Source of the DNA: an uncultured Verrucomicrobiota bacterium
GTDB lineage: Bacteria; Verrucomicrobiota; Kiritimatiellia; CAIQIC01; Lenti-01
Direction: 5' to 3'
Length of the DNA: 64,000 nt
NCBI GenBank assembly: GCA_964647595.1
Contig: CAZYGH010000015.1
Coordinates: 1-64,000, forward strand
Shown here: piece after piece, positions 3,868 through 50,158 of the stretch
Numbering within the stretch: position 1 is the stretch's first letter
How the letters are laid out: each line of letters opens with the position of its first letter
The notes under the pieces: model-generated
The model's database searches: none
Seen by the model: only the letters and a program-made list of their open reading frames with translations
Told to the model about the DNA's origin: nothing
Program-made: the position numbers and the translations under genes

Positions 3868-3942
3868 GTTTTCCACAGAATGGAAAAATGTTTCTCGTTT
3901 TTTCCACACAATGGAAAAAATGTTTCCACAGTGTGGAAAACT
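3868..3942. repeat. Copy 1 of a dispersed 75-bp triple-palindrome element (TTCCACAnnnTGGAA modules)
   Basis: Reads GTTTTCCACAGAATGGAAAAATG...TTTCCACACAATGGAAAAAATGTTTCCACAGTGTGGAAAAC. Near-identical copies occur at 18367-18440 and 47079-47151. Confidence 0.8.
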
Positions 3943-18366: not shown

Positions 18367-18440
18367 GTTTTCCACACAATGGAAAACTTTTTTTCGATTT
18401 TTCCACACAATGGAAAGAATGTTTCCACACTGTGGAAAAC
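18367..18440. repeat. Copy 2 of the 75-bp triple-palindrome element
   Basis: GTTTTCCACACAATGGAAAAC...TTTCCACACAATGGAAAGAATGTTTCCACACTGTGGAAAAC followed by TTATTTTTT. It lies between the convergent rfbB and pseudopilin genes. Confidence 0.8.
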
Positions 18441-39606: not shown

Positions 39607-39831
39607 TCAGGTCTTCTCCCGGAACGTGATGCGGCCCTTCGTCAAATCAGTTGGACTAATCTCCACCGTGACTTTATCGCCCGTGGTGATTTTGATGAAA
39701 TGCCGTCGCATCTTACCCGAAATGTGCCCGAGAATCTCGTGCCCATTGGTCAGTTTTACGCGGTACATCGTAGCAGGTAATACTTTGATTACCTCGCCAT
39801 TCACTGTGATCAGATCCGTTTCTTTCGCCAT
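39607..39831 (-). CDS. infA: Translation initiation factor IF-1
   Basis: 74 aa; [42 protein letters not shown] is the canonical S1-like IF-1 sequence. Confidence 0.92.
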
Positions 39832-39953
39832 AACTACTGCATCGCTCCTTTTCCCACAATCTTTGAAAGTAGCAGGTTCCTCCCGCCATATGCAATCCTA
39901 TAGAAAAAGGGCGTGCATCCGGAATTCTTGGACCGCCCCGGTTCAACCTTCGG

Positions 39954-40053
39954 CTATATAAACAAGGTCGGCCCGCTTTCCTTGGCCCGTGCGATGAATG
40001 TCGCCACGCCCGCCACCTCGTCAACATCGATCAGCTCCTCGCGCGTGAGGCCC
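39954..40053 (-). pseudogene. Orphan 3' fragment (last ~33 codons plus 26 bp of downstream sequence) duplicating the end of the CoADR-rhodanese-TusA-DsrE gene at 47726
   Basis: 39929-40053 is near-identical to 47700-47825. It encodes …GLTREELIDVDEVAGVATFIARAKESGPTLFI* and is truncated 15 bp before the IS left inverted repeat. Confidence 0.65.
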
Positions 40054-40068
40054 AGCAGAGGGGGCAGA

Positions 40069-41163
40069 GGGGTCAGTCCCGTATTCTAGTAATCTTCGCC
40101 AGACGATCCCTCTGTTTTGCCAGATGAGGCTCCTCCGTTGTTTCAATTCTCTTGGGATATCGGCTCAGGCAGTCGGCTCTCCCCATATTCAAACGACAGG
40201 CAATCCAAGCGTTGGGTATGGAGGTGTGGCGACGAAGCAACCAGGCCAGCAAACATTTCTCGTCAGAGCTTTTTGCACCTGCAACAATCTCTCGTTCATC
40301 GATCTTCAAAACTTGCAGCCCCGCCTGTAAAAGCGCTTCCGCCTTTCGCTCGTCATGAAGATCCACTTCCTCCCCGGAATACGACGCTCGATTTTTCTCC
40401 CCCATCTGCACATCAATCAACTCGCCTAGCCTTTCCCGAAACTCTTCCGGCCCCAAAAACCAACCCCGCCGAATCTTCTTCCATTCCCTATCCGCCTCGC
40501 GGGGATTCTCGGCGTGGAGAATTTCAGCCACACGCTTCTGCATGAGCCGACCATAGGCTTTTCGCCCCGCGGTGTTGTCCGCTAACTGCCGAGCACCCAA
40601 CACACGCTCCAAAACAAGCCATGCCGGACGATTAGAGGAACGTGCGTAGGCCGGATAACTGCTCCACGGATAATCCAACAAATCGCCGATCTTCAGATCA
40701 AACAATCCAGCCCGAGCAGGGTTGAGATGGATATACGAAGCGACGGCTTCCAAATAACCATCATCATCCGTATGAACTGGCAACGCCTTGTATCTCCCTT
40801 GAAACAGATGCCCCCACCGCCGATGACGAGCATTATATCGCTGGGTATAGGTGCCTTGAAGCCACTTCATACCAACCACCAAATTCGGCTCCGGCGTTTC
40901 CAGCAAAACGTGATAATGATTGCCCATGAGAACATAAGAATGAATGCGCCAGCCGCACCGCTCGCAAACCTCATCCAGAGTATCCAGAAAGACCCGACGA
41001 TCCAGATCGTCCGCAAAAATCTCTTGCCCCCCGTTCCCGCGACACATCACGTGATAGACCGCCCCACAATATTCTACTCTTGGTTTTCTTGGCATCGTGT
41101 CCACACCCTCTCATAAGTCTCCATGCCATTCAATCACTATTACTAGAATACGGGACTGACCCC
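40069..41163. mobile_element. Insertion sequence with perfect 25-bp terminal inverted repeats carrying a single HUH (IS200/IS605-like Y1) transposase gene
   Basis: Left inverted repeat GGGGTCAGTCCCGTATTCTAGTAAT (40069-40093); right inverted repeat ATTACTAGAATACGGGACTGACCCC (41139-41163), exact reverse complements. No obvious target-site duplication. Confidence 0.8.
40073..41104 (-). CDS. Transposase, HUH/Y1 (IS200-like/RAYT-like) with extended C-terminal domain
   Basis: 343 aa with HUH motif GNHYHVLLE and catalytic Tyr region YIHLNPARAG; the C-terminal ~150 aa form a DnaA-C-like helical extension. Confidence 0.8.
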   Translation of the reverse strand: MDTMPRKPRVEYCGAVYHVMCRGNGGQEIFADDLDRRVFLDTLDEVCERCGWRIHSYVLMGNHYHVLLETPEPNLVVGMKWLQGTYTQRYNARHRRWGHLFQGRYKALPVHTDDDGYLEAVASYIHLNPARAGLFDLKIGDLLDYPWSSYPAYARSSNRPAWLVLERVLGARQLADNTAGRKAYGRLMQKRVAEILHAENPREADREWKKIRRGWFLGPEEFRERLGELIDVQMGEKNRASYSGEEVDLHDERKAEALLQAGLQVLKIDEREIVAGAKSSDEKCLLAWLLRRHTSIPNAWIACRLNMGRADCLSRYPKRIETTEEPHLAKQRDRLAKITRIRD

Positions 41164-41282
41164 TTTTCGTCGAATCGGATTCCGGCGACGCCATCATCTT
41201 CGGCACCAACCTCGTCTATTCCGGCTACTCCCTGTCCGCCTCAGCAAACACTGGAACTGCCGATATTATCATCGATCCCTAA
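41164..41282 (+). pseudogene. Stranded C-terminal fragment of a disrupted gene (adhesin/autotransporter-like repeat tail)
   Basis: A frame running out of the IS right inverted repeat reads …ESDSGDAIIFGTNLVYSGYSLSASANTGTADIIIDP* with no start codon or upstream body. Confidence 0.35.
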
Positions 41283-41339
41283 TCCGACCCTCACGACAAG
41301 GCCGGGCCAAAAGCCCGGAGATTCTGGACAAGATAAAGA

Positions 41340-41750
41340 AATACTTTCAGCGATAGTTCCCCCCCCCCTCTCTCGCGGCCTTCCCCCCTTACACGTCGCG
41401 CTGTCGCGCCGCTACGCTGGACCCTCGCGGCGCGTGGGCGCCGCTCGGGGATAGCCGCCCCCGCTTCGGCCACGGCCACGCCGCTGACGCGGCTGGGCGC
41501 GGCCTGCGCAGGGGGCGGCTGTCCTCGCCGCTGGCGCGGCTGCGGGTGGAACTCGCTCGCGGTGCGCTCGCTCGCCTCTGCCTCGGGCTTTGCCCTCGGC
41601 ACCCACGCGGGCCTGTGCCCTTCGGGCAAAGCGGCCCGCGTGAAGATCGGCGGGGTTCTTCGCGGCGTTCTGCCGCGCTCTTCCGCCCTGCGGGCTTCGG
41701 GTGGGGGCGCGCGCGTCTTCTATCATTGTCCTGTGGCGCAGCCACATATC
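41340..41750. repeat. GC-rich noncoding repeat A (inverted relative to repeat B at 47240-47700)
   Basis: Shares reverse-complement words with B, for example GCCGCCCCCGCTTCGGCCACGG vs CCGTGGCCGAAGCGGGGGCGGC and CGCGCCGCTACGCTGG vs CAGCGTAGCGGCGCGG. Only Arg/Pro-rich junk ORFs are present. Confidence 0.6.
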
Positions 41751-41756
41751 CAAGGA

Positions 41757-42308
41757 TTATTCCTTAACAATTTCACCATTCCGAAGGAAGTACCCCATCA
41801 AAACACCCCAGTCACGCAGAACGCCGATGAAGGTGACCGAGTCTCCCTTTTTCAGCATTAATGCCTTCTGACCTTCCGAGTCTTTCAAACCCACAGTCAC
41901 ATCTGAAGTCAGGGTTAATTGCTTCATTTTGATACCCATGGAAGTTCCAGAAACCGAGGCAACTTGGCCGGTCCATTTTACCTTTTTTCCTTCGTACTGC
42001 TTCCACTTTTCTTTCTTCTGGATTTCAGTAGCATCCGAACTGGAGGAAAAGAACTTGTCAATCTCGGAAAAAGTTATCGCTGAAATAGGCGCGGCATTGT
42101 CTGCGGCCTGTTGTTTTCCTTGGGACTCCTTGAATGATTTGGACATCCATACGCCAATTCCAATACAGACTAAAATGACGAGAAGCAACTTAGTACCGCA
42201 CCCCGTCTGGCTATTCTTTTTCTTCAGCACGGCACCGCATTTCGGACACGATTCAGCCGACTTGCTAACTTCCGTTCCGCACGACTTACATTCTTTCATT
42301 TTGCTCAT
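41757..42308 (-). CDS. Hypothetical membrane protein: N-terminal zinc ribbon, one TM helix, extracytoplasmic domain (AT-rich, likely horizontally acquired)
   Basis: 183 aa with CKSCGTEV…CPKCGAV, then LLLVILVCIGIGVWM. GC is about 40%, against about 62% for the neighbourhood. Confidence 0.5.
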   Translation of the reverse strand: MSKMKECKSCGTEVSKSAESCPKCGAVLKKKNSQTGCGTKLLLVILVCIGIGVWMSKSFKESQGKQQAADNAAPISAITFSEIDKFFSSSSDATEIQKKEKWKQYEGKKVKWTGQVASVSGTSMGIKMKQLTLTSDVTVGLKDSEGQKALMLKKGDSVTFIGVLRDWGVLMGYFLRNGEIVKE

Positions 42309-42410
42309 TGTTGTACCCTTGGTTATGTGTTTCGTTAATTAAATATTGGCAGTGGCAATCAGCCGATACATTCTCACTGCGAGATTTTTACGGGCGTGGC
42401 TGGTTAGCGC

Positions 42411-43747
42411 TTAGAATTCAAGTGCGGCTTTCTTCTTTGCCTCTTCGGCTGCCTTTTCTTTTTCCTCTGCTACCCGGCTTGCTTCCTGTTGAGCCTGATC
42501 TACCTCGGCCTTGTAGGCAAGATAATGCCTTGTTAAGTTAAGATCGTACACTTCAAGGGATACTTGTCTTGACATTGCCTTTGCGCTTTCAAGTTTTTTA
42601 TCAAAGATATTTTCTGAGTAGGTCTCTTCAAATGTTCTGTTATAGTCATCGTATATCTTTCGAATCAAGTAGAAGCCCGGTATGGATTCATTACTGGTGT
42701 TCTCCACGGCTTTCTTTAACGCATCGTACGACTCAAAATCTGTCTGCCGATAAATTTCCATACAGATGCTTGGGTGGTTAAAGAATACTTTACGATATTC
42801 CTCAATATCCATTTTGGTTACCTGATAAGAATTGGAATTCCCGCTGATAAGCCTGACGAACACCGCGTCATTGGTAAGCACCAAGATATTTCGCGAATAT
42901 GTACATGTGTAGGGGGAAAGCTCAATGCTCTCCTTAACTATCTCATCACGGGCAACAATCTTGAAGCTCGCCTTGAACTTTTCTTTTGCACGCATTCCAA
43001 TATCCTTGACGCTTGTGCCTTCAGGGAAGGTCTGTGCAACACCCAAAAGCGCGCACGAACTCTTTGATTCACCATCACGCGCATCGCCCAAAAAGAAAAA
43101 TGAAAGAGCCTGGTAATTTGGGTCATTTGACACATACAATGACGGCAGTATTGAAACACCATCAATAAGCACCGTGTGCGCAGACATTTCTTCGTCTTCC
43201 TTTTCAATGACGAGCCGCTCGGGATCGGAATCCATATCCACCGTGTCCTCAGACATTTCTTCGTCTTCATTTTCTAAGTCAAGTCGCTCGGGATCGGAAT
43301 CCAGTTTGTAGAGTAAATATGCATAACTCGTCCCTGAATAAAATTCTTCTTTGTGGAGAGGAATGTGCTCAAGGTTTACCGAAAATGACGGATACTGGAT
43401 GGCATCTATAACACTGGCGATCTGTTCTGGAGTTGCGCCGTTCATCATGTAATCACCGATATACATATCAATGCCATCTGGTGACTCTTCTATTCTCTGC
43501 CTTACCGCTTCCCCCGATGAAGAAAGATTATGGGTCTTTCCAGCCTTTTTATCGGCAGATGATTTTTGGGCATCAAGCACCGCTGGAACAATCTGTTGAC
43601 CAATCCCTATAGCAACTCCAAGGGTGTCAGCCTTTCTCCACCCCGCCGACAAGGTAATAAGGCATAGAAACATAACAGTCTTAATGATTGCTGAATGCTT
43701 GAACGGGCTTTGTATCCATAAGGTATCGAAACGATTTTTTGTGCTCA
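42411..43747 (-). CDS. Hypothetical secreted/membrane-anchored protein with an acidic tandem repeat (AT-rich, likely horizontally acquired)
   Basis: Start taken at MSTKNRFD (ORF extends to 43874). Signal/anchor IIKTVMFLCLITLSAGW; tandem repeat DSDPERLDLENEDEEMSEDTV / DSDPERLVIEKEDEEMSAHTV; C-terminal coiled-coil KEKAAEEAKKKAALEF. Confidence 0.5.
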
Positions 43748-44185
43748 TACTTCTCTTTTTCTTTGAGGGTTCAGTTTCCAAAAATAATGGTCTGATTTTC
43801 GCGCCCGCGAAAAAAAAGTGGGCGCAACTTTTTTTCATGCCGCACCCTGGGCCACTACGCCCTGAAACGAACACAAACGAAAGTGCGCCCTATAGGCGCG
43901 TCTCTCGCAGTTCGCTCGTTTCAATGAATGTAGTGGATTCGGGTGCGACGAGTTCTGCAATAACGCAAAATCTAAAATGTCGAAAATCTATTGCTGGTCT
44001 GTTGCGTTCTCCTTGTCGGCAGGAGATGAATTCCTTACCGATGTGCCAAGAGTAGCAAAGAGGGGTCTGCTCGTCCAGCCTTGGGCAAGGGTAGAACTTG
44101 GCCAAAAATAACACTCGCCAAATCGAAGGGATCGCAAGAGACTATCCAGCGATTGGTTCATGCATCCGAAATTAAGGAGAAGCCA

Positions 44186-46438
44186 ATGAAAATAGGCCTG
44201 CAAATATCGAGTGATCCTTCCGCTGTCCAATCACATGGTGGGTGCGCAGGCAAAAGGCTGGGGATTATCTGCGGTCTGATGATCGGCGTTGTCGTGTTTT
44301 CCGGCGCTGCAACCGCGCAGGAAACGGCAGGAGATTCCTCGGCGTTGCTCCAAACCATGGTGGACGCGGGAATGATCACCCAAGAAGAATATGAGCAAGC
44401 CTTGGCGCGTGAAGGGCAGCTTGGTGAGGCTACCGCTCCCGCAATCGCTGATGACATGACATCGACAGCAACGCCTAAACGCGAATACAAAGAATTGACC
44501 TATGACGCGCGTCGGAAAGAAATGCAGGCGCGTTTGCCGGGGCTGGCCGAGCAGTTGGGGGCAGACTATCAGGCCAAGTTGCAGGCGGCAGTGTTGGCGG
44601 CAAGGCAATATGGATTGGAGATGCGGCAGGAATTCACAAACGGCGTTGTGCGCGAACTGGTGGCTTTCGAGAACGGAATGCCCAGATATTTTACCACCCA
44701 CAACCAGAACGCCGCCCGCACGATTTCTGCGGATCGGGTCTGGCCTTCCGGCACCAATGGATTTGCCCTGACGGGCAATCAAACGACGCTTGCCATATGG
44801 GATGCCGGGGCGGTGGATGGCCGTCATATTGAATTTCAGGAAAATGGCGTGACGCGCGTCCAACAGAAAGACGCCGCCCCTTCGGTGCACTACCATTCGA
44901 CCAGCGTTGCCGGGACCATGATTGCCACGGGGTACTACCCTTCCTCCCACGGAATGGCTCCTGTCTCCCGACTCTCCGCATACGATTGGAGCAATAACCT
45001 CGCCGAAGTGACGATTGCGGCGATCAGCAACGAGATTCGGGTCTCCAATCACTCTTATGGTTATGTGCAAGGATGGTCATCGAACTCCAGTTTGGGGGTT
45101 TGGGAGTGGTTGGGAAGCGTCTCCATAAGCACGAACAAGGATTGCGAGTTCGGCCGTTATTCGAGCGTGGCAACCAATATCGACAATGTGGCCTATGGCG
45201 CACCATATCATTTGTGCGTTTTTTCCGCAGGAAATGACCGGGGCGAGGGGCCGATCTCGCAACCCGTCACTCATCGCGTCTGGATACCCGGAAGCGGATG
45301 GGTCTATACCAACATGGTCCACGAGAAAGATGGCGGCTCGGCGGGTTACGACTCGGTGAGCCATTATGCTTGCGCTAAAAACATACTGTCCGTCGGAGCT
45401 ATCTACGACATCACCAATGGCTATCAATCGACGCAAGATGTCGTCATGACTTCATTTAGTTGCTTCGGCCCCACCGATGACGGCCGCATCAAGCCGGATG
45501 TCGTGGCAAACGGGGTCGCTTTGCTGTCTCCCATTTGGGTAAGCCCTCCCACCAATTATTATGACTCCTTGAGCGGCACCAGCCAAGCGGCCCCCGGAGT
45601 TTCTGGCGCAATGGGGTTGTTGCTGGAACTGCAAAACACGATACGCGAGACGAATCACCCTTTGCTGGCCTCTACCCTGAAGGGTCTTGTGATTCATACA
45701 GCGGATGAGGCTGGAAATGTCGGGCCAGATTATCGTTTTGGATGGGGCTTGGCCAACATACTTCACGTGGCGCAGCTGATGACCGAAGATGCAGATTGGA
45801 ATTCGCGACCGCATATCAAGGAAACCCGGTTGGTGAACGGCGACTATATCCAGTTTCAAGTTTTAGGAGGAGCAAACACGCCCCTGAAAATATCGATCAC
45901 ATGGACCGATCCCCCCGGAGCCGCGCACCCCGTTGCGCTCGATCCAACCAATCTTGTTTTGGTGAACGACCTCGACTTGCGTGTGATCGGACCGACAGGC
46001 ACTACAAATTACCCTTGGATATTGGACCCAACCAATCCCTCTGCCGCCGCCCTCACCGGCGACAACTACCGGGACAATGTGGAACAGGTCGCCATATTTC
46101 AGCCTTCCAATGACTGGTACACCGTAAAGATCACCCATAAAGGGACGCTGGCGGGAGGAGTCCAAGATGTGTCTATCATCATCGATGGCAACCAGCCAAC
46201 CAATGCACCCGAGTTGGCCATTGCGGAATATTACCGCACGACGAATGCAACCCATTGGATAGAATGGCCGGGCGTGGTGGGAAGCCTTTATAGAATCGAG
46301 GCGATTGGAGATATGATGGACACCAATGATTGGGGGGCCGTCGCCGACGATATCTATGCCACAAAAGATGATTTCATCTGGGAAGACTCGAACCCGGAAT
46401 CAATCACGAATTTCTATAGGGTAAGAGAAATCCAGTAA
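44186..46438 (+). CDS. Subtilisin-like serine protease (peptidase S8) with C-terminal proprotein-convertase P-domain
   Basis: Catalytic His (HSTSVAGT), oxyanion Asn (FSAGNDRG) and Ser (SGTSQAAPGVSG). P-domain-like jelly roll (NLVLVNDLDLRVIGPTGT). Signal-like CGLMIGVVVFSGAATAQ. The start is taken at MKIGLQ; the ORF extends to 44081. Confidence 0.8.
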   Translation: MKIGLQISSDPSAVQSHGGCAGKRLGIICGLMIGVVVFSGAATAQETAGDSSALLQTMVDAGMITQEEYEQALAREGQLGEATAPAIADDMTSTATPKREYKELTYDARRKEMQARLPGLAEQLGADYQAKLQAAVLAARQYGLEMRQEFTNGVVRELVAFENGMPRYFTTHNQNAARTISADRVWPSGTNGFALTGNQTTLAIWDAGAVDGRHIEFQENGVTRVQQKDAAPSVHYHSTSVAGTMIATGYYPSSHGMAPVSRLSAYDWSNNLAEVTIAAISNEIRVSNHSYGYVQGWSSNSSLGVWEWLGSVSISTNKDCEFGRYSSVATNIDNVAYGAPYHLCVFSAGNDRGEGPISQPVTHRVWIPGSGWVYTNMVHEKDGGSAGYDSVSHYACAKNILSVGAIYDITNGYQSTQDVVMTSFSCFGPTDDGRIKPDVVANGVALLSPIWVSPPTNYYDSLSGTSQAAPGVSGAMGLLLELQNTIRETNHPLLASTLKGLVIHTADEAGNVGPDYRFGWGLANILHVAQLMTEDADWNSRPHIKETRLVNGDYIQFQVLGGANTPLKISITWTDPPGAAHPVALDPTNLVLVNDLDLRVIGPTGTTNYPWILDPTNPSAAALTGDNYRDNVEQVAIFQPSNDWYTVKITHKGTLAGGVQDVSIIIDGNQPTNAPELAIAEYYRTTNATHWIEWPGVVGSLYRIEAIGDMMDTNDWGAVADDIYATKDDFIWEDSNPESITNFYRVREIQ

Positions 46439-46451
46439 GGGGAGCCGCGCC

Positions 46452-47042
46452 GTGCGCAACTTCTTTGCCATGTCAATCGCATGCGTCGTGCTGGCTTTCG
46501 GCCCCGGCGCAAGCGCGTTCCCGAGCATCGTATGGTCGGGAATACAGGACATCGACACCGGCTATTTGCCAATGGATTTGAATCAGGATTCCATCGTGGA
46601 TTTCCTGTACACATTCACTTTGATGGCGGAATTTTCCGTGACTTCCCAAGGCGCAAACAGGACCGGCGGTCCGTTGTCCGCAGGAACCGTGATCGATCAA
46701 TCGCTTTCGGATTATTGGCAAAGCGGTTCGCAGACAATGGCGCAATGGATAAGGCTGCTTGACGACAATACGGTGAGTTTCGGGCCATGGGCCGGAGTGG
46801 ACAACGGCTATATGGGTTTGGAATTCGAGGCCGCTGGGCAAACATACTATGGATGGGCGCGAATCACGGCGGATTATGACGACATTTATGTGGTCATCCA
46901 TGAATGGGCATACGAATCAACCCCAGGTCTCGGCATTGCCGCTGGGGCAACCGGGGTGATACCTGAACCAGCAACGGCCACGCTGATTTGCATTGGGGGA
47001 CTGGGCCTTGCCCTTTGGAAGAGGCGCAGGGTAATAATGTAA
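46452..47042 (+). CDS. PEP-CTERM sorting-domain protein
   Basis: Signal peptide plus C-terminal VIPEPATATLICIGGLGLALWKRRR (PEP motif, TM helix, Arg cluster). Confidence 0.8.
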   Translation: MRNFFAMSIACVVLAFGPGASAFPSIVWSGIQDIDTGYLPMDLNQDSIVDFLYTFTLMAEFSVTSQGANRTGGPLSAGTVIDQSLSDYWQSGSQTMAQWIRLLDDNTVSFGPWAGVDNGYMGLEFEAAGQTYYGWARITADYDDIYVVIHEWAYESTPGLGIAAGATGVIPEPATATLICIGGLGLALWKRRRVIM

Positions 47043-47078
47043 GCATGTCTTATAAATTCGGATCATGTCGCGGCGCAG

Positions 47079-47151
47079 GTTTCCACAGTATGGAAAACTT
47101 TTTCGCGATTTTTCCACACAATGGAAAGAATGTTTCCACAGTGTGGAAAAC
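47079..47151. repeat. Copy 3 of the 75-bp triple-palindrome element
   Basis: GTTTCCACAGTATGGAAAAC…TTTCCACACAATGGAAAGAATGTTTCCACAGTGTGGAAAAC followed by a T-rich run. Confidence 0.8.
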
Positions 47152-47239
47152 TTGGTTTTCAGGCTGTTCTCCGGGGTTTTCTCGCGCGTTCAGGCGAAAC
47201 GGGGGCGTTGCGTGCGCAGCGAGGATCTACTCAGGGGGC

Positions 47240-47700
47240 TGTTAAAACTTCCTAGAGGATTGAGAGACCATGCCGCGGAGCGCCGTCAGGCGCGACCCCA
47301 GTCCCGACGCGCCCCGCGCGGTCGGGACGGTGCCGGGCGCGGTCCAGAGTCCGCGCCTGGCAGGTAGGCCGCCGTGAAGCAAGTGGCCCCGAGTTTCACG
47401 CGTAGCGGGACACTCGGGGCGAGTTGCAGGCGGCCTTGCAGCGCCTTTAAAGGCGCGGACGGACAAGCGGCGTTGGAAATCCGCCGTCCTCGGCGGATTT
47501 GAACGACACGCGTAAGCGAAGGCGTAGCCTGAGCGCGGATCGGAGGCGGGGTTGGGCTCGCGGCGAGCTGCCGCGTACCGCATCTCCGTGCGCGCCCCAC
47601 CCGGAGCCCAGCCGTGGCCGAAGCGGGGGCGGCCAGCCACGAGCGGAGCGAGGGTCAGCGTAGCGGCGCGGCAGGAATCTAAAATGGTCGGCTCTTTTCA
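47240..47700. repeat. GC-rich noncoding repeat B (inverted partner of repeat A)
   Basis: 460 bp at roughly 75% GC without a credible ORF; shares an ~80-bp core with the reverse complement of 41400-41480. Confidence 0.6.
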
Positions 47701-47725
47701 TGGACCGCCCCGGTTCAACCTTCGG

Positions 47726-50158
47726 CTATATAAACAAGGTCGGCCCGCTTTCCTTGGCCCGCGCGATAAACGTCGCCACGCCCGCCACCTCGTCTACATC
47801 GATCAACTCCTCGCGCGTGAGGCCCATGACACCCATGGCCATATCGCAGGCAATAAACTTTACGCCCATCTGACGCGCGTTGCTCAGCATGTCGGGCAAC
47901 GACGTAATATTTTGGCTCGCCATCACATGCTTCATCATCTCCGTGCCCATTCCCGCCATATGCATCTTAGAAAGCGCCAATTTCGACGCGCCCTTCGGCA
48001 GCATGAAGCCGAACATCGTGTTCAGCAAACTCTTCTTCACCTGCGGCCCCGGGTTCTTCCTTAACACGCTCAAGCCCCAGAAGGTGAAGAAAATGCTGAC
48101 CTGCATCCCTGCTGCGGCCATGCCGGTAGCGAGGATGAGCGCCGCCAGTGCCTTATCCAGATCGTTGCTAAACAACACCATCGCACCGGAATTGCTGCTT
48201 CCAACCGTTGAGACAGACGGCACCGAGGTCCCCTTTCGAACAACGGCTTCGATGTAGGTATCTTTCCTCGTCAACTTGACAACCTTGTGACCACTGCTCT
48301 GCGCCCAATTGCTCAGGTCGGGAGCAAACCCCGATGCACCCAGCACTTTGATCGTGGCACCCGCCGGAAGTCCGTCCAATTCCTTCTTGATGCGCACCAC
48401 GGGACCGGGACATTGCAAGGGACGCACATCCACCACCGTCTTGGGCTCGTCATCCTCCGATGTGATCTGGGGTCCACCCTCGCTACCCGTGCAAGAAAGT
48501 GCAATCTGATCGTCGGAAGGCATCCACTTTTCAGGCTGAAATTGCTTCCACGTCAGATAGCCGCCCGTCAAGTTGGCCGCATCGTAGCCGAGTTGTTTCA
48601 AAATCCGTTCCGCCACATACCCGCGTAACCCCTGCTGGCAATACGCCACGATCAGCCGATCTTTGGGCAACTCGAATGCACGGGCTCTCAGTTGATGTAG
48701 CGGGATCGGAATGGCCCCTTTCATGACGCCTAACGCCACCTCCGCCGGTTCGCGAACATCCAGCAAAAGTGCGCCTTCGGGCAATGCATCCGCCTGAACA
48801 ATCTTGGAATCGCCATTCAACACATTGGTCGCAATCATGCCGGCCACGCTGATCGGGTCCTTCGCCGAACTGAAAGGCGGCGCATAGCAAAGCTCCATCT
48901 CCGCCAGTTGTCTCACATCCAGTCCCGCCCGCATCGTCACCGCCAACACGTCCGCCCGTTTGTCCGCGCCCTCGCTCCCGATGATCTGGCCACCGTAGAT
49001 TTTACCGTCCGCACCAAACATCAATTTGATGTGCAAGGCGGTCGCACCGGGATAATAGCCCGCATGAGAACCCGGATGCAGATAGACTTTCTGATACGCT
49101 TTCCCCATCGCTTTCAGCCGCGCCTCCGTGTGCCCGCAACTCGCCGCTGTCAGCCGCCCCACCTTCACCACCGATGCGCCATACGTTCCCGCATACCGAC
49201 TGTTGCGCCCCATGATATTGTCCGCCGCAATTCGCCCTTGCCGATTCGCCGGTCCCGCCAACGGCACCGCCGTGGGCTGCCCGAACACAGGGTCGATCAC
49301 CGACACCACATCCCCCACCGCAAAAATATCCGGATCCGCCGTGCGCATCTGGTCATCCGTGACGATATGTCCACGCGGCCCAATCTCCAGCCCAGCCGCC
49401 TTGGCCAGCCCCGAATTGGGCTTCACGCCCACACACAAGGCCGCCACATCCGCCGTCCACGAACGTCCATCCTTCACCGTCACACGGACTCCGCCGCCCT
49501 CCACGGAAGCAAACGCCGAAACCGACGCTCCCAATTCAACCACGATGCCCGATAGGCGCAACTCTTCCGCCAACAAGGAACTCATTTCCTCATCCATCGT
49601 CGGCAACAGTTGCTTGCCCATTTCCAACAACACCACCTCCAGCCCGCGATGCCGCAGACTCTCGGCCAATTCCATCCCCACAAATCCGCCGCCCACAACG
49701 ACCACCTTCTTCGCATCCGCATCCAGCTTCTTGGCAATGCGATCCATGTCCTCCAGCGTCCACAACGGCAACACTTCCGGCAAATCGATTCCCGGCAACG
49801 ATAGGTGCATCGGCGAGGACCCCGTGGCGATCACCAACTGGTCATAGCGCTCTTCACGAATGCTTCCATCTTGGCGATTCAATACACTCACCACCTTGCG
49901 TGTACGATCCATCCCCGTCACTTCATGATTCACCCGCACATCCACATTGAATCGGGCGCGAAAATTTTCGGGAGTCATCACCAGCAACCAGCTTCGTTCC
50001 GGAATGATCTTCCCCAAATGATAGGGCAGCCCGCAGTTCGCATACGAAATATGCGGACCCCGCTCAAACATCACAATTTCGGCCTTCTCATCCAACCGCC
50101 GCAACCGCGCCGCCGCACTGGCCCCTCCCGCTACACCACCAATAATGACTGTTTTCAT
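47726..50158 (-). CDS. Four-domain sulfur-trafficking oxidoreductase: CoA-disulfide reductase/NADH-persulfide-reductase-like (FAD/NAD) plus rhodanese plus TusA-like plus DsrE/DsrF-like
   Basis: 810 aa. N-terminus MKTVIIGGVAGGASAA with redox Cys SYANCGLPY; a rhodanese active-site region; TusA motif LQCPGPV; C-terminal DsrE-like domain ending …ARAKESGPTLFI. Confidence 0.8.
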   Translation of the reverse strand: MKTVIIGGVAGGASAAARLRRLDEKAEIVMFERGPHISYANCGLPYHLGKIIPERSWLLVMTPENFRARFNVDVRVNHEVTGMDRTRKVVSVLNRQDGSIREERYDQLVIATGSSPMHLSLPGIDLPEVLPLWTLEDMDRIAKKLDADAKKVVVVGGGFVGMELAESLRHRGLEVVLLEMGKQLLPTMDEEMSSLLAEELRLSGIVVELGASVSAFASVEGGGVRVTVKDGRSWTADVAALCVGVKPNSGLAKAAGLEIGPRGHIVTDDQMRTADPDIFAVGDVVSVIDPVFGQPTAVPLAGPANRQGRIAADNIMGRNSRYAGTYGASVVKVGRLTAASCGHTEARLKAMGKAYQKVYLHPGSHAGYYPGATALHIKLMFGADGKIYGGQIIGSEGADKRADVLAVTMRAGLDVRQLAEMELCYAPPFSSAKDPISVAGMIATNVLNGDSKIVQADALPEGALLLDVREPAEVALGVMKGAIPIPLHQLRARAFELPKDRLIVAYCQQGLRGYVAERILKQLGYDAANLTGGYLTWKQFQPEKWMPSDDQIALSCTGSEGGPQITSEDDEPKTVVDVRPLQCPGPVVRIKKELDGLPAGATIKVLGASGFAPDLSNWAQSSGHKVVKLTRKDTYIEAVVRKGTSVPSVSTVGSSNSGAMVLFSNDLDKALAALILATGMAAAGMQVSIFFTFWGLSVLRKNPGPQVKKSLLNTMFGFMLPKGASKLALSKMHMAGMGTEMMKHVMASQNITSLPDMLSNARQMGVKFIACDMAMGVMGLTREELIDVDEVAGVATFIARAKESGPTLFI

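Follow-up and report, generated by a model that had tools for sequence, protein, structure and literature searches.

The 64,000-nucleotide (nt) stretch analysed here (the window) comprises positions 1 to 64,000 of contig CAZYGH010000015.1, forward strand, in assembly GCA_964647595.1 of an uncultured Verrucomicrobiota bacterium (Kiritimatiellia; CAIQIC01; Lenti-01), and our subject is the segment at 41.35-47.67 kb, in which four genes, Zn183, p445, an S8 subtilase gene and a PEP-CTERM gene, lie between GC-rich noncoding repeats (Table 1). The left repeat, blockL, belongs to a dispersed family; on the right, a palindrome array (tripal) and a second repeat type (blockR) precede a damaged, inverted blockL. 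Comparison with related loci showed the segment to be an accessory, modular cassette of foreign composition, bracketed by a repeat family that elsewhere brackets restriction systems and surface genes. We think it probable, though well short of certain, that the whole of 41.35-47.67 kb is a single accessory cassette of a lineage-specific system that resides between inward-facing inverted copies of blockL.

Table 1. Features in and around the repeat-bounded cassette (window coordinates)
Feature	Position	Strand	Remarks
infA (IF-1, 74 aa), intact, outside cassette	39607..39831	-	PF01176 on called gene
DR-B, displaced copy of DsrE-fusion 3' end	39925..40054	-	95% identical to 47697-47826
TIRtron: RAYT-like Y1 (HUH) transposase gene between terminal inverted repeats	40068..41164	-	Y1_Tnp plus inverted repeats
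3' remnant of unknown gene (...GTADIIIDP*) and terminator-like hairpin, cut by TIRtron	41165..41320	+	Frame-1 translation
blockL(+), distally truncated copy of dispersed GC-rich multi-hairpin noncoding element	41345..41716	+	GC 0.76
Zn183: N-terminal zinc ribbon, one transmembrane helix, C-terminal OB-fold domain (183 aa)	41757..42308	-	Small membrane partner; YccF instead in some relatives
p445: orphan membrane-anchored protein (445 aa)	42411..43748	-	Conserved N-terminal anchor, highly divergent ectodomain
Divergent intergenic region, p445/S8	43749..44185	.	Kept together with S8 in L103 and L089
S8 subtilase (750 aa), signal anchor, C-terminal beta domain	44186..46438	+	Peptidase_S8 PF00082, 112.6 bits
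PEP-CTERM protein (196 aa)	46452..47042	+	TIGR02595, 19.9 bits (cut-off 16)
tripal, three copies of palindrome GTTTTCCACAnnATGGAAAAC	47079..47153	+	Precedes blockR in composite boundary
blockR, second GC-rich noncoding repeat type	47172..47585	+	88-96% identical copies in ~28 loci
delta-blockL(-), internally deleted, distally truncated inverted blockL	47586..47674	-	Core start joined to mid-block module
DR-A, native DsrE-fusion 3' end and 29 nt downstream	47697..47826	-	130-nt direct repeat with DR-B
CoA-disulfide-reductase/rhodanese/TusA/DsrE fusion gene (810 aa), conserved flank	47726..50158	-	Pfam

All four cassette genes had been read from the letters in an earlier note, as a zinc-ribbon transmembrane protein of 183 aa, a 445-aa protein with a 69-nt tandem acidic repeat, an S8 protease of 750 aa and a PEP-CTERM protein of 196 aa, and all four were recovered as such. 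The S8 translation carries the D, H and S triad motifs (DAGAVD, HSTSVAG and GTSQAAP). Its description in the note as a kexin-like subtilase with a P-domain is not supported, and neither is a kexin/furin-type identity, because no P_proprotein match was detected at E <= 0.01 and the nearest relatives in the PDB were 5fax and 1wmd, with KP-43 and SubHal at 4e-18 and 3e-17. The PEP-CTERM protein scores 19.1 bits with the Pfam model, just under its cut-off of 20.7, and bears the sorting signal at its C-terminus (...IPEPATATLICIGGLGLALWKRRRV). In Zn183 the C-terminal domain has the five-stranded barrel of the oligonucleotide/oligosaccharide-binding (OB) fold, of the tRNA_anti-like or OB-fold envelope lipoprotein kind. 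The p445 C-terminus is conserved (...KKAALEF), and homologues of this protein fall into only ten clusters; a profile search with the p445 alignment against 1.84 billion representatives found no remote relatives beyond the family. In every case p445 is followed by the gene of a small membrane protein, YccF or Zn183. A tandem duplication of 69 nt in p445 (43161-43298, 84% identical) adds a second copy of an acidic 23-aa repeat (DSDPERL..EDEEMS), and the doubled repeat occurs only in the window allele, the other nine alleles having one copy or none.

The composition of the segment departs from that of its surroundings in two ways. Mean GC content of the window is 0.584, and the earlier note had reported a fall from about 62% to about 40% across 41757-44100 that stayed depressed to 47050. 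The fall itself was confirmed, to 0.41-0.46 across ~41.8-44.0 kb (0.45 for the low-GC cassette overall), but its persistence was overstated, GC being only mildly low (0.52-0.575) over 44.1-47.05 kb. GC at third codon positions (GC3) is 0.46 in p445 and 0.53 in Zn183, compared with 0.70-0.78 in the flanking core genes, and takes values of 0.55 in the Y1 transposase gene and 0.62 in the S8 and PEP-CTERM genes; the p445/Zn183 pair is compositionally foreign. GC skew is uniformly and strongly negative over nearly all 64 kb, reaching about -0.45, and comes close to zero only at 41.4-47.6 kb, across the cassette, a relaxation that is a second compositional sign of foreign or inverted DNA.

The cassette also lies in an interval that differs between relatives. 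Orthologues of the DsrE-fusion gene (80-84% aa identity, in Verrucomicrobiota metagenome-assembled genomes (MAGs), the nearest species-level genomes) stand in a conserved Hcp-Fer4-Rrf2-DsrEfus...sigma synteny, and the interval between the fusion gene and sigma-70 held different genes in every relative examined, including L003, L004, L010, L011 and L015. It is therefore an interval that is variable clade-wide, a hotspot. Loci with L numbers are short-read metagenome contigs, many of which end within repeats, and 204 were fetched in all for comparison with the features of the window; the window was also matched in the 115-kb JGI metagenome contig 3300020048 Ga0207193_1000164 and in two ENA contigs. 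A 27-mer from the blockL core, used as a metagenome search pattern, returned 97 stretches, mostly from anaerobic digesters and bioreactors, the first 80 loci of which were mapped in detail.

With these copies in hand, blockL could be described as an element in its own right. Across 41 distinct aligned copies, the proximal end is common and sharp to the nucleotide, reading (TT)AAGA/CGCGCGCGCCCCCACCC (the slash marks the end of the element); in the window it falls at 41716 and faces the cargo. From this end follow a core of ~75 nt, hairpin modules and G-run iterons, in that order; the core is invariant, a property partly built in over its central 27 nt, which served as the search pattern. About 120 nt of blockL are ~100% conserved across contigs whose coding genes are only 80-94% identical or unrelated, and the window copy is 96% identical to that of L103 and 97% identical to that of L089 despite different adjacent genes. 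Complete copies have an equally sharp distal end (...ACAGGCCGCCAT/), beyond which at least five unrelated flanks were seen, and blockL is therefore a discrete unit of ~0.6 kb with dissimilar ends; no terminal inverted repeats were found on blockL itself when its two unrelated termini were compared. At some loci where copies are paired, this common motif of the distal end is absent. Hairpin modules are present or absent as whole units, and stem flips are few.

Both GC-rich blocks fold better than shuffled controls (z = -3.6 for blockL and -5.1 for blockR), and in the window both lie downstream of outward-reading operons, which raises the question of whether they function as RNA or transcription elements, be it as 3' untranslated region (3'-UTR) structures, terminators, insulators or a new noncoding RNA. 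A few stems with compensatory flips, such as GGGCAACGCCC / GCCCCTTGGGC, would agree with this. In contrast, both strands fold about equally, the modules come and go entire, and the covariation term in a consensus folding of 31 blockL copies was ~0, most pairs being invariant. Rfam 15 gave no match at E <= 1 within 38.5-48.5 kb of the window except a chance snoRNA (17 bits), and none at E <= 0.1 in L205, L129, L118 or L165. A role as 3'-UTR or terminator was rejected on orientation, as the orientation of the gene beside the proximal end is random: of these contexts, 29 have the 3' end of the gene towards blockL and 24 the 5' end. From this orientation, the lack of an Rfam match and the near-absent covariation we conclude that blockL acts as DNA and not as a transcript, and we regard an RNA function for the blocks as very improbable.

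The right boundary is a composite. The earlier note had described two inverted GC-rich repeats of ~400 bp; both blocks exist and so does the inverted bracket, but in the window the left and right blocks are homologous over only ~76-100 nt, including a 39-nt arm at 90%. So little is shared because the right-hand noncoding region (47172-47674, GC 0.68-0.81) is blockR fused to an internally deleted, inverted blockL. The joint of the deletion is a short CCACCCG-AGCC repeat, the middle of the element having been lost between two such repeats, and at the same position L118, L129, L144, L149 and others carry a full-length inverted blockL. Read in this way, the inverted GC-rich bracket is genuine. Elsewhere, too, one end of the unit is usually composite, in the order tripal - blockR - blockL(-) that is seen here: in each of the ~28 loci with copies of blockR in other contigs, blockR abuts the proximal end of an inverted blockL, and tripal adjoins blockR in many loci (blockR also occurs in L100/L101 and L209-L211). 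The tripal palindromes have 21 strand-wise matches in the window, where 1.1 are expected. Arrays of this kind (~75 nt, with palindromes spaced 31 and 22 nt apart) stand at 3871-3938 and 18370-18437 as well as at 47081-47148, always intergenic; in other contigs the number of units ranges from 1 to 5, and in six relatives (among L090-L098) the array directly follows infA. Its function may be that of a terminator or of an array bound by protein.

What the repeats enclose is exchanged piecemeal. In L103, nucleotide identity is 94% from S8 across the intergenic region into p445, as far as codon ~49 (window 43600-46095 aligned), beyond which the locus carries a p445 allele of only 35% aa identity and YccF, and then blockL. 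In L089 the S8 and PEP-CTERM genes are 87% identical in nucleotides and p445 is 74% identical in amino acids, with YccF in place of Zn183. In L100/L101 and L209-L212, S8 and PEP-CTERM are absent and the region upstream of p445 is directly connected to blockR and tripal; conversely, blockL directly adjoins S8 in L147, L176 and L186, where the p445 pair is absent. The repeats are thus far better conserved than the genes they bracket, while sub-modules are independently present, absent or replaced, with breakpoints in conserved segments. The earlier suggestion of a horizontally acquired, rearrangement-prone cassette is upheld by these relatives, since the same slot has different contents in L089, L103, L100/L101 and L205-L212, and a conserved gene set in a fixed order with uniform GC, which by the earlier note would have refuted the suggestion, was not what the relatives displayed.

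The arrangement of blockL copies and the nature of their cargo extend this picture beyond the window. Among non-redundant loci with two exact copies, 9 of 11 have them facing inward around 4-11 kb of cargo (25% expected), one has them facing outward and one in direct orientation. S8 and PEP-CTERM pairs adjoin blockL in at least 13 other loci, at 31-87% identity. Restriction systems are represented by type I hsdRMS, MmeI-like enzymes and a type III-like ResIII and RE_endonuc protein with DUF4268, and other cargo includes a Schlafen-type helicase with a MazG-like gene, a set of TIR-like, dTMP-kinase and deaminase genes, IS3, and giant surface proteins of 1300-1580 aa. In L170/L176, where long flanks are available, blockL has core genes (SerS, TilS; GC3 ~0.8) on its distal side and cargo on its proximal side.

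That the cassette is accessory and exchangeable follows from these comparisons; possible routes of movement are homologous exchange, site-specific recombination and transposition. We propose that non-essential gene blocks would be filed between inverted blockL copies, usually with tripal and blockR on one side. On this proposal the window cassette would be a mosaic of two sub-modules, the recurrent S8 and PEP-CTERM cargo and the foreign, low-GC p445/Zn183 pair, in which p445 would be a membrane-anchored protein with a fast-diverging ectodomain and its partner a small inner-membrane protein (Zn183 here, YccF elsewhere). The repeats would act as portable DNA-level recombination substrates, at minimum supplying homology for allelic exchange and inversion, and may also serve as recombinase sites, by either of which cassettes would be swapped between strains. 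Homologous exchange fits because the mosaic breakpoints lie in conserved segments; single-nucleotide junctions, the excess of inward pairs and an association with large serine recombinase (LSR) genes suggest a site-specific or transpositional component. The window copy is probably decayed and immobile, since it has no recombinase, a TIRtron sits at its edge, and its two blockL copies have both lost their distal parts and one of them its middle as well.

Several observations weigh against this proposal. Homologous exchange alone fails to explain why more than 40 unrelated cargoes abut blockL at the same nucleotide, and it leaves the preference for inward inverted pairs unexplained; these two observations point to site-specific recombination or transposition, and so do the LSR genes, found in 14 of the 80 mapped loci and in L205 beside a cassette of the window type. 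The comparison draws entirely on short-read metagenome contigs, many of which end in repeats, leaving orientation, pairings and apparent inversions open to assembly ambiguity. The closest genomes are only ~80% identical in amino acids, and an empty-site search among GTDB genomes found the interval filled with different genes, with no true empty site for the lineage; a second attempt, through an exact look-up of infA, located that gene elsewhere in relatives. Finally, any function assigned to p445/Zn183 is a guess, PADLOC being negative and the predicted folds generic.

In a different reading, blockL or its proximal end would be the site of an LSR, and the cassettes, which would be inserted, excised or inverted site-specifically, would form an integron-like or staphylococcal cassette chromosome (SCC)-like platform. 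The cassette of the window would then be a decayed, non-autonomous member that formerly relied on an LSR supplied in trans. In the 14 loci an LSR gene (Resolvase, Recombinase and Zn_ribbon_recom domains) lies 0.2-1 kb past the distal end of blockL. L205 reads p423-Zn183-blockL-blockS-LSR, and its LSR is 96% identical to those of L124, L156 and L165, which stand beside different S8/PEP-CTERM cargo. The nucleotide-sharp junctions are as such a site would leave them, and the flank that carries HsdR and blockL is joined to the S8 end of one cargo in L112/L184 but to its blockR end in L119 (99.6% and 97.7% identity). This contrast is the expected product of inversion between inverted copies, or it could reflect the choice of an assembler, because the repeats exceed the read length. 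In L122, directly repeated composite boundaries flank an hsdRMS cassette, and SCC elements are likewise based on LSRs, integrate at gene 3' ends and carry tandem defence cargo (PMC11470126). Known LSR attachment (att) sites, in contrast, measure ~40-50 bp, whereas blockL has 0.4-0.6 kb of hairpins; no short repeat of att type was identified, and inverted sites yield inversion instead of excision or integration. In 66 of the 80 loci no LSR is within reach, and neither tblastn with LSRs over the 64-kb window nor a Pfam search of the called genes within ~10 kb of the cassette (Y1_Tnp apart) found a recombinase. We hold the LSR platform to be a tentative alternative, unlikely as the evidence stands. 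The broader claim that blockL with blockR, blockS and tripal makes up an undescribed LSR-driven cassette system of anaerobic-digester Verrucomicrobiota, a counterpart of the integron with a serine recombinase in which the ~0.6-kb element is border and recombination site of interchangeable multi-gene cassettes, and that p445 with YccF or Zn183 is a new envelope defence or exclusion module, seems to us similarly doubtful.

The LSR genes themselves lie between GC-rich inverted repeats of ~345 nt (blockS, 90-100% identical), at 213-561/2410-2758 in L118 and 50-395/2125-2470 in L165, and likewise in L127, L125, L168, L171 and L156; one blockS repeat overlaps the 3' end of the LSR gene. Relative to blockL, LSRs of 96% identity point one way in L124/L205 and the other way in L165/L156, which suggests that the LSR segment itself inverts, unless assembly ambiguity is responsible. 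The two orientations also count in favour of the LSR platform, with the same reservation there, as inverted repeats longer than the reads may produce such a signal in assembly. In L127 (3201-4256), a unit of ~273 nt recurs three to four times in tandem (77-82% identity) on the cargo-facing side of a blockL copy with an LSR beside it.

Transposition offers a further reading, in which blockL would be a non-autonomous mobile element, either a miniature inverted-repeat or palindrome-associated transposable element (MITE/PATE-like) whose single-stranded hairpin DNA is mobilised by a Y1/HUH enzyme, or the long terminal inverted repeats (TIRs) of cargo transposons, and the bracket would be the outcome of transposition. 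In its favour, blockL is a discrete 0.6-kb unit, dense in hairpins and devoid of coding capacity, and its two ends are sharp and unlike each other. The proximal end is preferentially preceded by A-rich (TT)AAGA, which resembles the short target motifs of IS200/IS605 elements, and three outward-facing pairs ~1.4 kb apart (L139, L150, L182) resemble small elements with inverted ends. A palindrome of ~26 nt (GTCCCGACC..GTCGGGAC) has entered blockL at no fewer than four positions, and palindrome mobility therefore appears active in the lineage. A RAYT-like gene even lies 190 nt from the window copy; that Y1 gene, however, has TIRs of its own that are unrelated to blockL, and no homologue of it stands beside any other blockL copy. 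No target-site duplication or empty site was found, and the absence of the common distal-end motif at some paired-copy loci also counts against this reading. We judge this origin of the bracket improbable, if somewhat less so than the remaining alternatives.

Copies of the ~26-nt palindrome, (C)GTCCCGACCnCGAAGnGnGTCGGGAC, were seen inserted at at least four positions in L171, L186, L117, L129, L137, L152, L146, L154 and L123 (alignments A7/A8), and a related stem, GTCCCGAC...GTCGGGAC, lies in the window blockR at 47300-47330. The palindrome looks like an active mini-element of the repetitive extragenic palindromic (REP) kind nested in a larger repeat, some copies of it being tagged with CGTC. 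Independent assemblies also break within blockL at different points (the end of L002, the start of L096 and the ends of L089, L103 and L101; window 41450-41619), which fits either a multi-copy repeat or loss of coverage at 76% GC; short-read contigs under-represent such junctions.

The outermost flanks suggest a third possibility, namely a classical genomic island whose site-specific integration into the 3' end of the DsrE-fusion gene supplied a new end for that gene, with the 130-nt direct repeats DR-A and DR-B as attL and attR and the integrase since lost. The duplicated 130-bp fragment of the fusion gene that the earlier note had reported is present, at 39925-40054 and 47697-47826, the two copies lying ~7.8 kb apart with compositionally foreign DNA between them. 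DR-B holds the final 33 codons of the gene (29 of them the tblastn match), its stop codon and 29 nt downstream. Its five coding differences from DR-A are all synonymous, leaving 29 identical amino acids, so that both copies must have evolved as functional gene ends before they were joined; the duplication thus consists of two diverged functional gene-end alleles brought together, by integration or, as it could equally be, by homology-facilitated illegitimate recombination. Against an island, no integrase lies between or near the repeats, and the TIRtron and the unrelated gene remnant separate DR-B from the cassette. Relatives with the same cassette, moreover, are bordered differently on the outside, L205 by an LSR and L207 by EF-Ts, and for this reason we do not tie the duplication to the repeat-bounded unit; illegitimate recombination or a truncated second gene copy would account for the duplication as well. 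Integration of an island at this gene end therefore seems to us a rather poor prospect.

The proposed filing of cassettes between inverted repeats has parallels in known systems, from each of which it differs. Neisserial minimal mobile elements, with their neisserial intergenic mosaic elements (NIME/dRS3) and Correia arrays, share a fixed slot in which variable cassettes are exchanged via conserved flanks, and dispersed, structured noncoding repeats beside variable surface genes that are substrates of recombination or integration. The flanks here are of another make, being a dispersed 0.4-0.6-kb repeat of 76% GC with two sharp ends, in inward inverted pairs, with an LSR as a frequent neighbour and an uncultured Verrucomicrobiota host. 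The pdif (Xer) modules of Acinetobacter plasmids likewise combine discrete accessory modules, inverted recombination sites and arrays, but their sites are of 28 bp and served by XerC/D, and nothing dif-like occurs here. REP sequences and bacterial interspersed mosaic elements (BIMEs), REPtrons and TIRtrons resemble blockL as extragenic mosaics of GC-rich palindromic units that gain and lose whole units, and the window has a TIRtron of its own (PMC3733652). BlockL, in contrast, is one ordered unit of ~0.6 kb with defined ends whose unit order and ~75-nt core are conserved, and not a variable string of 20-40-nt REPs; it is extragenic and has modular hairpins, as BIMEs have.

SCC and SCCmec elements combine LSRs, insertion at gene 3' ends with direct repeats, and tandem mosaics of defence cassettes (PMC11470126), features that have counterparts here, if only a possible one for insertion at a gene 3' end. 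Their att repeats, however, are short and lack a 0.6-kb hairpin element, the window has no ccr-like gene, and the 130-nt repeat of the DsrE-fusion 3' end is far longer than an SCC site or other att repeats and has other DNA between it and the cassette; an SCC-like identity was rejected for the window, where tblastn found no LSR, the LSR feature being met only in relatives. Sedentary chromosomal integrons with near-identical attC repeats are described as carrying defence cassettes (bioRxiv 10.1101/2024.07.02.601686). They have in common with our loci a structured repeat at each cassette border, sharp junctions, anti-phage cargo and a recombinase at the edge of some arrays; the differences are that the recombinase here is an LSR and not an IntI tyrosine recombinase, that the repeats are 4-10 times longer, have no attC cores and are mostly inverted, and that cargo here comprises several genes (4-11 kb) under promoters of their own. 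An integron identity was rejected: no IntI lies within ~10 kb, the junction is (TT)AAGA/CGCGCG and not GTTRRRY, and the boundary copies are inverted. No published description of these repeats was found in the literature on LSR cassette arrays or Verrucomicrobia GC-rich repeats, nor in Rfam.

As to what p445 and Zn183 do, our best guess, founded only on the architecture of the two proteins, their divergence and the kinds of cargo in equivalent slots, is that they form a module of the envelope or surface that varies under diversifying pressure such as phage might exert. Whether the pair might be a defence system, as the earlier note had thought possible, was put to PADLOC 2.0, which matched 0 families for either protein at E <= 0.1 (and for S8 only weak generic subtilase and IetS models); p445 also matched nothing in Pfam or NCBIfam. 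Structure prediction for the pair, which the note had likewise called for, recovered the OB fold in Zn183 and otherwise only generic folds. In L104-L107 and L099 (the P0008 and P0006 lineages), the p445 and YccF genes form an islet that separates pgl from a conserved gene of 240 aa (hyp240); in L003 and L010, pgl and hyp240 stand side by side in that same DsrE-fusion...sigma interval. Distant p445 homologues (35-39% identical; L083-L088, L104-L107) lie in regions of 45-48% GC, next to genes for further small membrane proteins of the zinc-ribbon or DUF4234 type, with an Xre-type helix-turn-helix gene directly upstream in the P0008 lineage and an AAA_15/AAA_21 ATPase nearby in L084, a neighbourhood that hints at a defence island.

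If the repeats are recombination sites, they would amount to a new bacterial way of filing and shuffling multi-gene defence and surface modules, with a serine in place of a tyrosine recombinase and in a poorly studied phylum. The 27-mer core has already served as a bait, retrieving 97 accessory cassettes, many with recognisable restriction systems and others with only unknown genes, and blockL could help to find new defence or surface systems, much as the attC sites of integrons have done. If portable homology for allelic exchange is all that the repeats supply, the loci still document the architecture of a hotspot and three or four repeat families absent from Rfam and the literature searched, and they put the orphan p445 family with envelope genes that evolve fast and are exchanged horizontally.

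Left of the cassette lies a transposon that the earlier note had taken for a bounding insertion sequence with 25-bp TIRs. The Y1_Tnp gene (343 aa, 40073-41104, minus strand) and its repeats are real, the latter being perfect over 26 nt (40068-40093 / 41139-41164, AGGGGTCAGTCCCGTATTCTAGTAAT; 0 matches in shuffles), but the element is a TIRtron outside the repeat-bounded unit and no structural part of it. The protein passes PF01797 (43.9 bits, cut-off 23), reaches 56.2 bits with REP_Tyr_transpos NF047646 against a cut-off of 80, and shows HUH and catalytic-region motifs (NHYHVLLE and SYIHLNP, YIHxNP). An IS200/IS605 identity was rejected, NF033573 scoring 16.5 bits against a cut-off of 55 and the TIRs being unlike the ends of those elements. 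TIRYT genes are RAYT-like genes flanked by TIRs with a GGGGWSAS motif, forming 'TIRtrons' (Di Nocera et al., PMC3733652), and GGGGTCAG within the window TIRs fits this motif, so that the Y1/HUH domain and motif-bearing TIRs are found together. No further copy of the Y1 gene or its TIR was found in the 204 fetched loci, the TIR having only its two copies in the window; the TIRtron is missing from every other blockL locus, and its transposase was rejected as the mobiliser of blockL. Given this absence and its position, we treat it as a secondary, incidental insertion at the edge. The sequence that it cut, a remnant of 38 codons (41165-41283), is the actual stranded gene fragment, and no homologue of 41165-41320 was found in the fetched loci; the open reading frame at 39713-40027 is no such fragment, as it overlaps the intact infA.

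The position of infA is itself unusual. Proteins identical to that of the window occur in L090-L098 in the context mutS<->infA->guaB, with nucleotide homology limited to 39607-39899 (infA and 68 nt upstream). In the window the gene stands between the DsrE-gene fragment and sigma-70, a place where relatives with the DsrEfus...sigma synteny have nrdR before sigma, and this essential gene appears, from these contexts, to have been relocated into the variable interval.

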